From sequence record NZ_CP145916.1: 64,000 nt of DNA, one strand, 5' to 3'. Positions 32,656-62,600 of this stretch are shown piece after piece. The position numbers are program-made. Every line of letters starts with the position of its first letter. The stretch's first letter is position 1. The DNA comes from a plasmid.

Positions 32656-35600
32656 TCACAGCTGTCCGGCCCGCAGCGGCGATGTGCTGGCGAGATGAAA
32701 TCCCAGACCGACACCCCAACCATCAAGGCCAGGCCGACATAGAGCAGTCCACCGCTCTGCCAGCCGTAAGCCCGCATTAAAAACACCGCTGCCAGCACCA
32801 AGATCGGGCCTATCGTGCCGAGCGCCGTGCGTCGCCACTGTCGATGATTGAGCCAAGCGATAGCATTGGCGAGTAACGCGATGCCGGCGAACATCGGCAG
32901 CAGGATGCCAATGAATAGCCCCTCGTACTGGCTCAAGAAGCCCAGTCCGATGGCCGCGCCAAAGCTGGCGATGGCAGGAAAACAGGCGGCGCAGCCCATC
33001 GCGGAAACGACGCTGCCGAGCGCGCCGGTTTTGCCAGCGATGCGCGTGATGAGTCCCATGTGTCGCTCCCGAGTTCGGTTAACGGATCAGCGTTTGAGGC
33101 TGGACGGATAGCCCGCGTCCTCGGTCGCCTTGGTCAACTTCTGGACGTTGGTCTTGGCATCGTCGAAGGTGACGACGGCCTGGCGCTTGTCGAAACTTAC
33201 GTCGGTCTTGCTCACGCCCTCAACCTTGGAAAGCGCGTGCTTGACAGTGATCGGGCAAGAGGCGCAGGTCATGCCAGGCACGGACAGCGTGACGGTCTGG
33301 GTGGCGGCCCACACGGGGGCAACAACGGCAGCGAGGGCGAGGGCGGCAAACAGTTTTTTCATGATGAACTCCTGTGATTAATAGAAAAATGGCATGACGT
33401 AGGGAAATCCGAGCGAGACCAGGACCAGCGCGGCCACGATCCAGAAAATGAGCTTGTAAGTAGCTCGCACTTGGGGAATCGCGCAGACCTCACCCGGTTT
33501 GCAGGCTTGCGCCGGGCGGTAGATGCGCCGCCAGGCGAAAAACAGCGCGACCAGCGCTGCGCCGATGAAGATCGGGCGATAGGGTTCCAGCACCGTCAGG
33601 TTGCCGATCCATGCCCCGCTGAACCCCAAGGCGATCAAAACCAGCGGCCCCAGGCAGCAGGCCGACGCAAGAATGGCGGCCAGCCCACCGGCGAAGAGCG
33701 CGCCGCGCCCGTTTTGTGGTTCAGACTTTTGTGGTTCAGACATACGCTTGTCCTTTCAAATTTGGTTTGGATAGCTTAAGCTTACTTCCGTAGTTATGTA
33801 CGGAGTCAAGCGATATGCAAATTAATTTTGAGAATCTGACCATTGGCGTTTTTGCCAAGGCGGCCGGGGTCAATGTGGAGACCATCCGGTTCTACCAGCG
33901 CAAGGGCCTGCTGCCGGAGCCAGACAAGCCCTATGGCAGCATTCGCCGCTATGGCGAGGCGGATGTAACACGAGTGCGGTTCGTGAAATCGGCCCAGCGG
34001 CTGGGCTTTAGCCTGGACGAAATCGCCGAGCTACTGCGGCTGGAGGATGGCACCCATTGCGAGGAAGCCAGCGGCCTGGCCGAGCACAAGCTCAAGGATG
34101 TGCGCGAGAAGATGGCCGACTTGGCACGCATGGAGGCCGTGCTGTCTGAACTGGTGTGCGCCTGCCATGCGCGGAAAGGGAACGTTTCCTGCCCGCTGAT
34201 TGCGTCACTGCAAGACGGAACGAAGCTCGCTGCATCGGCGCGGGGGAGTCACGGGGTGACTACGCCTTAGCGTGCTTTATTTTCCGAATTCTGAGACGAC
34301 CCCATAGACAGTAAGATGGTTCGTTGAACAGCAGACATACGATGCTTCGTTCCATTCCCGGACATCTTTCTCATCCTCTTAATCATATACCATATGAATA
34401 GCATACATTCAGCGCTATACTGTGTCACGTACAAGTATCTTGCAGGTAGATTTCGGGATGTTGCCGAATATTGTAGGATACGTGTTGTGGTAGTGGTTTT
34501 TTCCACGCAAATAATCGACATGAAAAGGTGGGGTCATGAATAAATCATTTTTAGTTCGTAGCTGTGTACTGGCCGGGGGGCTTTTCGCACTATGTACCAG
34601 TTTCAGTTCACTGGCAGCAGAAAAGAAAACGTATACAGAAAGTCTCTCAAAGTATCAGCATACTATCGTTGCAGGTGAAACACTGGAGTCGCTACGGGCC
34701 TACAAGCAGGGGTGCCCTGAATGCGTTAAAGTCGCTCAGGACATTGCTTCCATGAGACAGCAGTATTGTGCAGACAATCAATCCAACGTGGATAGCGTCA
34801 TTGCCGGTGATCCGGTGTATGCCTATCTGAATGGTGTCCGTATCGTTCTGACGCCCCAAGGTGGATACTCCAGCCCTATGTACACCTCAGCCCGTCAGAT
34901 AGTTGAGACAAATGTGGACTGCGTTAACTCGCAAGACTGGATTGACCGTAGCCAGCACGTCCTGACCCAAACGTTTAATAACGGGAAGCCTTTAGGCTGA
35001 TAGTGATATTGAAGAAGCCGCGTTAATTCGCGGTTTTTTTTGCCTTAAATTACCCTCCAGCTATTCGACCTAAAAATTATCGTGAGAAACTTGTCATACA
35101 CACACCCATGTCTGATGAGGTATGAAAATGATCAATTTGAAGGCGCTTTTTGAAAAGGATGCAGCTGAGCGTTATAAGGTGCCTCTATGGATGGTCGAAG
35201 AGCGCCGTGACCGAGATGGCTATAACATTGACAGCAGTTCTATCCTGTCAATGCTTCACTGGGAGTGGCTGGCATGGCAGCGATGCCGAGACAGTCTGGC
35301 CCGTGAGTCAATGGCATCCAGCCCGATAAATGAGTCTGATAAAAAGACAATCGCTGATATGCGAGATTTGGCAATCAGCATTGAAGAGTGTTTGTCTGAA
35401 CCAGTCGAAAGCCGGGGGGATGAAATCATTCATCTGTATGACAGGTCAGATACTGTCTTTTCTGCAAAAAACGTAAATGTTTTGCTGGGCATTATAGATA
35501 ATTTCGCTCTGCAACATACCATGCCAGTTATCAAGACTGCCGATTAAAGATGGCCTCAGAAGCATTGAAGAAGCCGGAGGGGTTCAACGACACCAAGCTT

Positions 35601-59600: not shown

Positions 59601-62600
59601 CGTTAGCTATTTGCCCAGATGACTTCGACCCTATCCTTCCGTGGGTGATAATGGCTCTATCATAAACAGATAAGGAACCAGCGATGAATGACATCGTGCG
59701 TAGAGAAGAGAAAATTGAGCGCCTTCAACGCTTCCAGTCCCTAAAGGCCGGGGCGTACTGGAAAGCGACTGAGGATATTACAGAAGAAGCGATTAACGCA
59801 GGTGACACCCTTCTTCTGATGTCAATCCGCTGGGTTGATAATCAGGCCCACACTATCATTTTGCGTGCGCATCCCCGTCATTTTGACGAGTACGTGATTA
59901 TCGAAGTCGAAGGCCCGGACGGTAAACTTCAAAAGAATCATAAGCGCATGGTAGAGCATCGTTTTCTGGTTCAAGACTTCCTTAATAAGTTCGAGTTTGA
60001 GCCTAATCACACGCAAATCCGGCAAACAGAAATTGCTTCCGTTCACGCGGAAATACACGCTCTACAGCAAGTGATGGATGACGCGATGACAAAGCCTGAG
60101 ATAATGAAGGCCATCGTGGATACGCAACTTGCAGCTGATGAAGAAAACGAGATCAAGAAACTTGATGGCAAAATAGAAAAGCCTTTGCTCCCTGCTGTTT
60201 TCGATGAGGTTGTCCCAGTCGTTACCGGCACTGTCCAAAACGCATTATCTATGGGGGGCGAAGCGCCCAGCATGGATGTGATGAAACAGGCTCTAAATAG
60301 AGAAAAACGTATAGCTGTTATCCAGACCAAGTGGCTTGAAAACCAGAAGCAGCAGATCAATAACATCATTAAAAAGCTGATGCCTTACTTCAATGAAATG
60401 CCCGCTGCGGCGCTGGCAATGAGTGAAGACGTGCGTGAGCATGTTGATAAGCTGGAGTCCGGTATTAAGTCGATGCTCCTGTACACAGGCGAACATGTTG
60501 AAATTGTGCCGGTTAAAAAAGGCAAGTCTGCATCGAGCGACATTCCACTGACGCTTGTACAGAAAAAGCTTATTGTTGAAGAAGAGCTGGCCGTCTGGGC
60601 TGATATTGACGAGTGGTTTGATTTCCGTTCCGAAAATCTCTTTTTCAAAGCGCTGAATGAACATCCTGAGCTGGTTACGCAAATTTTCCCGTCTGAACGT
60701 TGCGTGCTTGTCATGGCGATGACGAACCATGATGTTAACTACGGTGAGCCGTGGAGTAATGAAGAGAACAACAAAAGGAACCGTCGCGTTTTCCTGATGG
60801 TACGCGATGGCGAAAATATCTATCAGGTGTTCTCCCCAGTTGAAAGCCACCTCGGCTCTTCCCGTCTGTTCCCTGCCCGTGATGAAGGCGAGGCTATTTT
60901 CCGTGGCTTAGACGGTTCGCAGATTAAGTTTGATGATGTTGCCTACACTGACCGGCTGAAAGGATTTGACCTTCGCGCCCTTCACTATAAGCGGTTCCTA
61001 ATCCTCATCTGCGGGCTTGACCACCGTGAGAAGCTATTCGGTGACTTCTACGACGAGCCACAGTCTTTGGACTTCATCTCGATGAGGTTTCAGGAAGACT
61101 ATTGCCGGTTCCTGCATGATGAAGATGGTAGCGGGCTCTTGGCTGCTCATGATGACCGTCCTTCCCTCAATCAGTACATCATGGCTACATGCGCTCAGGC
61201 TCCCGTATGCTGTGTAACTGGCGTTCCGTTATGTCTCCTAATACGGCACCCGGAGCCTGTAAACAAGACACTAGTTCCCGGTATGGTCGTGGATGGAATT
61301 TTACCGCTGATCCTAAAGACAATATCAGTCTCGCAATCGCATACCGTAAAGCGCAGTCAATCTGTGTTGATGTCCCTGTTAAACGTCGATATTCAGATTC
61401 GTGGTTTAACTGCAAAGTTGACCTTGTTGCCAATGATGACCGCTATGAAAACGAAGACAATCAACTCCCGTACCTGTGTCTGGATGCTATCGAACCGGAC
61501 GATCTGGAGTGGTATGTCGTTAATCGTAAGTATCGTGGTGATCATCTTTTCTATATCCGTTTCTTCAAGATGGCCATCCAGTTTATCCGGGCTGAACGTG
61601 AGGCTGAAAAGCCTGTGCGTGAAATGATGGCGGATGCTCTGGATAAGGGAAATATCGGCGCACCAGCTGATCGCCCTTCCCTGATTTCCCAGTCTGTTAT
61701 CGCATGGCGGGCAGCAAAACGCGGCGCACCATTGACTGACGCACTGGATGATAAAAAATCATGGACTTCACTTTTAGATCAGATGTACATGCTGGCGGGC
61801 AATGCCGGTAATGAAATTGATGATGTGGCCGCGTTTGTAACCGAACTGGGATACAAGCCTCTGCGGCTGGTTGTTAACGCCACTGGTAAGCTGGCCGTTT
61901 ATGCCGAGTCCGTTCAGAATGAACGTGATGACCGTATGGAAAAGCATATCTGGGTTCACCGTATCAATATTGTTCGCGGTAAGCGCAAAATCAGGGAAAC
62001 AAGCCGGTCGTGGGCGATTCTGCCTGAGTCAGTGGCCTCTGAGACAACTATCCATCAGTGGGATGATGCGACAAACTGGACTGGGTTAACGTCCTCATTC
62101 ACGACATACCTTGCGAAGCAGCGTATTTTTGAACGTATTGATAATTGCCCCGACATCTTAAAACTGTTTTCTGGGAAAATGACCCGTGAAATTTTCAACT
62201 CCATTTTTGCTGAATGGTCTGAGGCTTACGATACGCTGACTATGGCGAGTAACACTATAACCACGCCAAAGCTTCTTATTCCGTTTGGATATCGGATTGG
62301 GGCAGATCATCCAATGTTTCTTTGTGTTTGCGTAACAAATCCTGAGCATCTTCTTTATAAGCTGGCCCCGGATGATGCAAGCCGCGATGCAATAAGAAAT
62401 AAGTATTTACGTTGGTACAAGGATGAGTTCAAAGATAAGTACGACGGAATATTCATGCGCAAGTTGAACGACCCTATTCGCTTTGAACTTTATTCATCAG
62501 GTGATGCGAATATCACGAATGGCCGTATGTTCAATGTGTCCGGCAATCCTTATCGTATGATAGAAAGTAATGTTCTGCCGGATCGCTTTGCGGATGCAAT

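Follow-up and report, generated by a model that had tools for sequence, protein, structure and literature searches.

Putative TTCG-box promoters on the backbone of an IncT-type resistance plasmid: a shared box, its lineage variants and its possible readers

Why do so many operons of one plasmid backbone begin behind the same short promoter-like sequence, and what would read it? The question is raised by the plasmid sequence record NZ_CP145916.1, of which a stretch of 64,000 nucleotides (the window) was analysed and in which the part from ~34.5 to 64 kb is the backbone of an IncT/Rts1-type resistance plasmid. Genes of this backbone repeatedly stand behind a TTCG box, which is found in one orientation only and is fixed at -36 to -30, that is, at the position of the -35 element, and a -10 hexamer downstream of it; in a complete IncT relative, about 33-40 copies of such TTCG-box promoters are present.

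The window between 35041 and 59652 is 100% identical to IncT backbones such as that of Providencia rettgeri p18014577_Rst (NZ_MW864328.1, 24292-48903), and the backbone of Rts1 (NC_003905) matches it likewise, with one extra IS3-family insertion; both plasmids are typed as IncT, MOBH and MPF_F. Whole-plasmid counts were based on p18014577_Rst, which is complete at 146,248 bp and is called pRst below, and positions of the window at ~35-60 kb are obtained by adding 10,749 to the pRst position. The DNA of the window up to at least 34 kb has no counterpart in pRst and appears to be accessory.

A putative promoter family at the starts of backbone genes

In the backbone part of the window, the family has the form [CTA/GAC]TTCG(A/G)CC, 16-17 nt, (TGn)-TAAAAT/GATAAT and is represented by 11 copies, all of which are situated within intergenic DNA or at its edge and are aimed at a gene start, with a co-directional start codon 1-103 nt past the -10 hexamer at every site (11/11). 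The backbone has 23 gaps of 50 bp or more, and the copies are found in 10 of these. Scanning the window with the pattern TTCGNC-N16-18-KAWAAT gave 11 matches, where 0.46 were expected from shuffles, and a two-block weight matrix returned 11 sites, none of them outside the backbone, where 20 Markov controls gave 0-4; as the matrix was trained on the family itself, this second result is a consistency check and not an independent test. The -10 hexamer has A at position 2 and T at position 6 at all 11 sites, and four of them carry TG at -15/-14.

Counts over the whole of pRst give the family its statistical weight. TTCGACC occurs 35 times, and 22 of these copies fall within the 16% of the sequence that is intergenic (~4-fold enrichment), so that the equal frequency in coding DNA which, by the preliminary description of this locus, would have refuted the motif is not seen. 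A hexamer with A2 and T6 lies 16-18 nt downstream of 20 of the 22 intergenic copies, compared with an intergenic background of 21%, while a match of at least 4/6 to TATAAT is found behind 15 (background 7.6%) and TG just before the -10 in 14. Five of the 13 coding copies are followed by an A2/T6 hexamer, and three of these five are at the 3' ends of genes. When 33 sites were aligned on TTCG alone, conserved letters emerged downstream at +20 (T, 67%), +21 (G, 76%), +24 (A, 88%) and +28 (T, 85%), with a spacer of 17 nt in 25 sites, 16 nt in seven and 18 nt in one. The test was also anchored on the -10: among 51 intergenic, gene-directed [TG]A[TA]AAT hexamers, 20 have TTCG at 16-18 nt (~0.6 expected), only two are paired with a TTGnnn -35, and the TG-extended ones pair with TTCG in 13 of 16 cases. 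The fuller consensus is (G)CTA or GAC, TTCG, A, CC(C), ~10 unconserved bases, (C)GTG, one base and GATAAT/TAAAAT.

That this pattern arises at the RNA level (leader structure, processing or antitermination) or as an artefact of chance or composition is, in our judgement, extremely improbable. Chance is excluded by the enrichment statistics for the window pattern, the intergenic copies and the -10-anchored hexamers. Pairing is possible within some spacers (ACCCC...GGGGT at 41635 is an example), as an RNA role would have it, but no Rfam family matched at the box sites, five of six sites fold no better than their shuffled versions (z near 0), no fold is shared between them and the spacers are unconserved. 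The same four findings also speak against a Frpo-type single-stranded promoter, in which a long imperfect hairpin forms the -35 and -10.

The genes behind the box include ssb, the Dam and DUF4942 methyltransferases, RdgC and DinG, with PsiA and DinI-like genes elsewhere in the plasmid. The sites of the window are collected in Table 1.

Table 1. Putative TTCG-box promoters of the window (lower case, flank of the box; distance, from the end of the -10 to the gene)
Feature	Position	Strand	Box	Spacer	-10 region	Distance	Downstream gene
Weaker box promoter	35061..35091	+	ctaTTCGACC	16 nt	TGA-GAAACT	30 nt	141-aa gene (35122)
Box promoter	37524..37554	-	gacTTCGACC	16 nt	TATAAT	63 nt	DUF1496 gene (37460-37071)
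Box promoter	37730..37761	+	ctaTTCGACC	17 nt	TGC-TAAAAT	30 nt	DinG-like helicase gene (37792)
Box promoter	41632..41663	+	gacTTCGACC	17 nt	TAAAAT		148-aa/RdgC operon
Variant box promoter	45320..45350	+	cacTTCGCCC	16 nt	TGG-TAAAAT		160-aa gene
Box promoter	45824..45855	+	ctaTTCGACC	17 nt	TAAAAT	65 nt	558-aa DUF4942 methyltransferase gene (45921)
Box promoter	49410..49441	+	gacTTCGGCC	17 nt	TGC-GATAAT	26 nt	103-aa/PIN operon (49468)
Box promoter	53579..53610	-	attTTCGACC	17 nt	TATATT	103 nt	SGNH hydrolase gene (53475-52957)
Box promoter	58289..58320	-	ctaTTCGACC	17 nt	TAAAAT	45 nt	177-aa gene (58243-57710)
Box promoter	58845..58876	+	gacTTCGACC	17 nt	GATAAT	73 nt	218-aa gene (58950)
Box promoter	59621..59652	+	gacTTCGACC	17 nt	GATAAT	31 nt	large ORF (59684)

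The preliminary description had located seven of these sites exactly (37733, 41635, 45323, 45827, 49413, 58848 and 59624) and had seen the weak copy, which begins at 35064 and not at 35065. Its family of at least eight copies is real and was undercounted, since the minus-strand sites 37551(-), 53607(-) and 58317(-) had been missed; the first of these is divergent from the dinG promoter, and an orthologous footprint is seen in a Klebsiella relative. The extended upstream similarity of several sites (GGCTATTCGACC and GATGACTTCGACCC) was described correctly, while the GGGGTGC segment reported from several spacers is carried by only two, the more general feature being the TG at -15/-14 of an extended -10. 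The blocks at 58831 and 59606, said to be near-identical over ~55 bp, agree at ~79% over 55 nt, and their similarity extends further, to ~95 nt: 58831-58925 and 59606-59700 are copies of a promoter, its leader, the ATG and the first six codons (MNDIVR). Judged from this alignment, the 58848/59624 pair is a local duplication and therefore provides no independent evidence for the motif. The copy opening at 58908 survives only as a remnant of 13 codons in front of the 218-aa, DUF6884-like gene, which suggests that this gene was inserted together with a promoter copy.

Two of the annotated starts, TTG 41665 and TTG 45361, lie 1 and 10 nt past the -10 hexamers, and the former is unlikely to be a start because it is too near to its hexamer; if the promoters are real, the in-frame ATG 41707 and ATG 45415 are probably the better starts. 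Such corrections (41665 to 41707, 45361 to 45415) are of use in annotation, as is the box for finding operon starts in related plasmids. The box at 45827 overlaps the final codons of the upstream gene. Two of the 11 pattern matches in the window, 19794-19821(-) and 29634-29661(-), are identical to each other (TTCGCCC...TAAAAT) and run antisense within two copies of a repeated 240-aa accessory open reading frame, which is probably an insertion sequence (IS) transposase; given this antisense position inside a repeated ORF of transposase size, they were set aside as chance matches.

Lineage variants of the box and the transfer operons

Three related lineages, picked by the identity of their DinG-like proteins (79%, 57% and 54%), were compared over 42 kb each, namely Klebsiella p33Kpn22-2, a Providencia heimbachae plasmid and the Salmonella/Citrobacter plasmid pSA20083039.1; a search of genome contigs for more lineages by DinG alignment returned almost only chromosomal DinG genes of Pseudomonas and no new lineage. 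In IncT, TTCG is followed by ACC in 19 sites. The Klebsiella plasmid is syntenic, with proteins 33-87% identical, and its orthologous upstream regions align with those of IncT at the box and the -10 only; its box reads TTCGGCC or TTCGGCT in 10 of 14 scored promoters, and the A of IncT is replaced by G at three of five aligned orthologous promoters. The ortholog of the dinG promoter at 37733, for instance, reads CTATTCGGCCC. Nine of 19 promoters of the Salmonella lineage have TTCGTCA(C/G) as their box, and the Providencia heimbachae lineage has TTCGTCAGC, with -10 regions of the GGTGATACT type behind it. Every lineage keeps TTCG, the next-but-one C, the spacing and the TG, and the intervening bases vary jointly within each of them. 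All four lineages have hosts among the Enterobacterales, whose sigma-70 is near-identical. Because the consensus of the box differs by plasmid lineage while the sigma-70 of the hosts is nearly the same, the comparison suggests that a plasmid-encoded protein reads the box.

The leaders of these promoters have a recurring element of their own. Many box promoters of the Salmonella and Providencia heimbachae plasmids carry a conserved leader, GTAAACAAAACGAA, ~10-20 nt past the -10. At this position a weaker element, (T)AAACA(A/G)A, is present in the IncT sites, and the two may represent a shared signal of the 5' untranslated region.

Could the reader be the transfer activator, as had been proposed when the motif was first noticed? 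Rts1 encodes the FlhC/FlhD-like activators Orf246/247 and a negative regulator, Orf249 (PMC10838148), and FlhC was confirmed by a Pfam match in the IncT plasmid. The presence of these activator genes (PMC10838148), and the fact that the AcaCD and SetCD boxes likewise sit at the -35 position (PMC4542580), would fit a regulon of this FlhDC-family activator, the homologue of SetCD/AcaCD. However, the tra operons bear a different box, (A/T)4(C/T)GT(C/A)C(C/T)NTTT, which occurs at 11 intergenic sites at 55-110 kb, before traL, traC, traF/H/G, traN, traA and others (for example CCCCAAAACGTCCCCTTTTTC and CCCCTGTTTTGTCCCCTTTTATC), and which resembles the AcaCD core of IncA/C plasmids, GCCCAAAATGGGC (PMC5058578), to which the TTCG box shows no likeness. 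None of the 33 TTCG-box sites lies at pRst 58.5-117.5 kb, a part of 59 kb that holds the tra genes and the recombination module, and the two motif classes are spatially exclusive save for one tra-type box inside the window, at 53720-53743. In addition, the IncA plasmid pRA1 has AcaCD boxes and yet no TTCG class; for this reason, transcription-start data from IncA/C plasmids are not transferable to the sites described here. Taken with the 0/33 count, these observations make it very improbable that the TTCG box marks the regulon of the transfer activator.

The exceptional tra-type box deserves a note of its own. On the plus strand of the window at 53720-53743, CCCCCGTTTTGTCCTTGAAAAAAC resembles the FlhDC/AcaCD-like box and ends 56 nt before the 254-aa gene at 53800-54564, and a sequence akin to it precedes the Klebsiella ortholog of this gene (upstream of 37108); the 254-aa backbone gene may thus belong to the transfer-activator regulon.

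As judged from motif content and placement, the box-driven set is distinct from the transfer regulon of FlhDC type (SetCD/AcaCD-like), and it probably stands upstream of it, because the operon of the activator itself, parM-orf249-slt-flhD-flhC, starts at a TTCG-box promoter; a perfect box promoter is found before this operon in both the IncT and the Providencia lineage.

What might read the box

Our preferred reading, which we hold tentatively and regard as a serious possibility that stops short of being probable, is that the sites are host-readable sigma-70 extended -10 promoters of the non-transfer backbone, a set of establishment, DNA-metabolism and maintenance genes, and that the box at the -35 position doubles as operator for a plasmid repressor. 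The motif with its statistics and placement, its absence from the tra operons and its variants by lineage are direct observations, from which we infer promoter activity, the plasmid-encoded reader and the sign of its action. The host sigma-70 polymerase would start unaided, by means of the extended -10 and the partial -35 match TCGACC, and the box genes would fire at once upon entry of the plasmid into a new cell. The additional letters that are conserved, namely T-36, C-34, the CC and the CTA/GAC on the flank, would be bound by a protein encoded on the plasmid. A repressor is the most likely candidate; by lowering the expression of all these genes jointly at a later time, it would produce zygotic induction. 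Promoters readable by the host are expected because genes such as ssb, rdgC, dinG, those of two orphan methyltransferases, and psiA and dinI-like genes elsewhere in the plasmid should be needed on arrival, before any plasmid protein exists, and a common site over the -35 means that one plasmid protein could shut all box genes down.

Five points weigh against a repressor reading of this kind. The box is a single asymmetric site with neither repeat nor dyad, which is unusual for repressor operators, and an activator, or RNA polymerase reading the box directly, would also be compatible with the rigid spacing and orientation. The Klebsiella ortholog of the 45323 promoter keeps the -10 and not the box. 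No candidate reader emerged, as Pfam found no sigma, helix-turn-helix or other DNA-binding domain in ~40 small or conserved proteins of the window and the plasmid. Finally, Orf249, the sole regulator-like protein near the box-driven activator operon, tracks a set of iterons and not the box.

The case of Orf249 is instructive. The protein follows parM and, as read from its sequence without a model, has a ribbon-helix-helix-looking N-terminus and a basic C-terminal tail. At pRst 117.3-117.5 kb, at least 12 iterons (TCATTCAA/TTGAATGA) with a period of 11 bp lie between the TTCG-box promoter and parM, and the parM operon of the Providencia lineage likewise has a box promoter and then an iteron array of 11-bp period. 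The N-terminal motif of Orf249 follows these iterons, with K-H-N accompanying TCATTCAA and Q-R-T accompanying GGCTAAAT; the Salmonella and Providencia lineages have a common N-terminal motif and GGCTAAAT-type iterons, which are unlike their TTCGTCA box, and the parC iterons of IncT, TCATTCAA, resemble CTATTCGAC weakly. The ParR-like Orf249 was therefore rejected as reader of the box, as it co-varies with the parC iterons. It is probably a ParR-type partition adaptor that autoregulates the parM-orf249-slt-flhD-flhC operon, and autoregulation of this flhDC-like operon would account for its published negative effect on Rts1 transfer.

With regard to the common regulator that the preliminary description put forward, one promoter family with a conserved -35-position box, varying jointly in each lineage, has been borne out, and the search for the reader protein itself came back empty. 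For the dedicated sigma factor named beside it, no support emerged: the -10 is of sigma-70 type (TAnAAT with TG), the annotation of the plasmid record contains no sigma-like protein and no general regulator apart from FlhC and HigA, and no sigma domain was among the Pfam results for ~40 proteins.

It is also conceivable, if rather doubtful, that the host polymerase is the only reader, in which case the sites would be constitutive sigma-70 extended -10 promoters and the box an inherited sequence kept for strength, comparable to the early promoters of phage T4. TCGACC agrees with TTGACA at four of six positions at a 16-nt spacer, a generic promoter scan reads four sites as TCGACC-16-TAAAAT with 9/12 matches, and T-35, G-33 and C-31 are the letters that are invariant in all lineages. 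The failure to find a reader among the ~40 proteins, and the 58848/59624 pair, which shows a promoter spread by local duplication, would be explained as well. However, tens of promoters in each lineage agree on ACC, GCC or TCA despite the near-identical sigma-70 of their hosts, the relatives' TCGGCC and TCGTCA match the -35 consensus at only 3-4/6 positions, and the switch from A to G occurs jointly across orthologous promoters. Gene conversion is no explanation for this agreement, since flanks and spacers outside the box and the -10 are unrelated. Moreover, T-36, C-34 and the CTA/GAC flank are conserved although sigma-70 ignores these letters or reads them differently; among the conserved T-T-C-G-N-C-C of the box, a C stands where sigma-70 prefers T.

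Unlikely, though not negligible, is a further alternative in which the box takes the place of the -35 element and serves as binding site for a plasmid class II activator or for a sigma-remodelling factor similar to MotA/AsiA of T4, which the polymerase would require. The rigid spacing (17 nt in 25/33), the single orientation, the exact -35 position and the near absence of TTGnnn (2/51) are what such an activator predicts, C-34 is invariant in four lineages where sigma-70 prefers T, and the lineage-specific variants of the box imply a co-evolving reader; the same plasmids already use a class II system of this kind for their tra genes (PMC4542580). Against it, the -10 elements are good and mostly TG-extended, and such promoters usually work without recognition of a -35. 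Genes of the regulon such as ssb, psiA and those of the methyltransferases are expected to act on entry, before a plasmid protein is present, and the operon of the master activator is itself box-driven, so that another activator would have to come first; here too, the Pfam analysis of ~40 proteins yielded no candidate.

A related and equally unlikely idea is that of a private promoter code, in which a plasmid protein without a known DNA-binding domain would read the asymmetric TTCG-N-C box, either alongside sigma-70 region 4 or as a substitute for it, and would have co-evolved with it in each lineage (ACC, GCC, TCA). If true, it would amount to a first-tier switch above the FlhDC-type activator by which ~35 operons are controlled together.

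Other upstream elements, significance and known systems

Several further elements upstream of genes were seen in the course of this analysis. In the window, a ~65-nt repeat, ATTATGCGCACCAAG...TATTGATTTTAAA...TATCCGGTTC.TG.TTTTTTCACCTT, is present at 56135-56198(-) and 57400-57473(-), where it precedes two genes of the minus strand, 55447-56064 and 56953-57330; having no relation to the TTCG box, it counts as a second element that recurs before genes. Before the 558-aa DUF4942 methyltransferase gene, the leader, 45855-45925 (+), forms a long hairpin (-32.5 kcal/mol, z -3.3) that pairs AUUAUUCCUCA with UGAGGAAUAAU and so covers the ribosome-binding site by the start codon; the Klebsiella relative retains its inner stem, GAGAGGGGAAACCCTCTC (45880-45897), and the hairpin may be a translational control element. 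At pRst 91-100 kb, the ssb, recT, exonuclease, MoxR and VWA genes have runs of TCTATTAAATATATAA-like repeats immediately upstream of their ribosome-binding sites; going by sequence and placement, these repeats are a third motif class that marks a third plasmid module. In pRA1 (IncA), the palindrome CTTTCACATGTGAAAG or a close variant recurs upstream of genes 6675, 19379 and 30131 and also before 12951, where the gap is a divergent one; parA is among the genes that it precedes. By its appearance, it is a global operator of IncA/C plasmids that differs in kind from the TTCG box.

Large MOBH plasmids, those of IncT type and their relatives, are vehicles by which genes for carbapenemases and other resistances spread in Providencia, Proteus, Klebsiella and Citrobacter, and most of their backbone genes are annotated as hypothetical. 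The box may serve as a handle on ~35 transcription units. It separates an establishment and maintenance tier from a transfer tier, with the operon of the transfer activator falling under the first. If one plasmid protein reads the box, that protein would represent a single control point of plasmid establishment, a possible target and a probe of zygotic induction.

A description of the TTCGACC box was not found in the literature: a text search with the sequence returned only unrelated primers, and the Rts1 papers covered are silent on it, the 2002 Rts1 genome paper lying outside that coverage. That many backbone operons share one recurring promoter/operator is a familiar idea, and what is new to us is its form, namely an asymmetric box of 7-11 bp, fixed at -35, with lineage variants and no recognisable reader. 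In the KorA/KorB regulon of IncP-1 and the leading-region promoters of IncN pKM101, with their CUP repeats and ArdK, one regulator and a recurring operator serve many backbone operons with co-ordinated repression and a burst after transfer. The operators of KorA/KorB and ArdK are palindromes or repeats of at least 100 bp at variable positions, and their readers are known, whereas the TTCG box is 7-11 bp long, asymmetric and always at -36 to -30.

Phage T4 likewise combines a promoter consensus of its own with a host-type -10: its middle promoters carry a box at -30 that is read by MotA with AsiA, and its early promoters are factor-free. T4 promoter cassettes are duplicated with gene insertions, as in the 58848/59624 pair, although neither T4 promoter sequence resembles TTCGACC.

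Closer to the plasmids studied here, the AcaCD and SetCD systems of IncA/C and SXT/R391 also have a plasmid-specific box at the -35 position and a fixed distance to the -10 (PMC4207636, PMC4542580, PMC5058578), and by this box a regulon comprising many operons is marked out in related MOBH/MPF_F elements. The AcaCD sites, however, are long, have poor -10 elements and serve transfer genes, while the -10 of the TTCG-box promoters is good and often TG-extended, and the IncT homologue of the AcaCD box sits on other operons than the TTCG box.

Finally, plasmid p576 of the Gram-positive pLS20 family has EGeRS2 promoter/operator sequences and Reg576, the repressor of its establishment regulon (PMC8708921). 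The repressor of p576 is known, is of the ribbon-helix-helix type and is autoregulated, whereas that of the present system is putative, and the IncT element differs in being a single asymmetric box fused to the -35 position. The likeness lies in the many small and variable establishment operons, each behind the same promoter/operator sequence (PMC8708921), in a gene content of anti-restriction and DNA metabolism and, by analogy, in a logic of expression on entry followed by shut-down, which the TTCG-box promoters may share.

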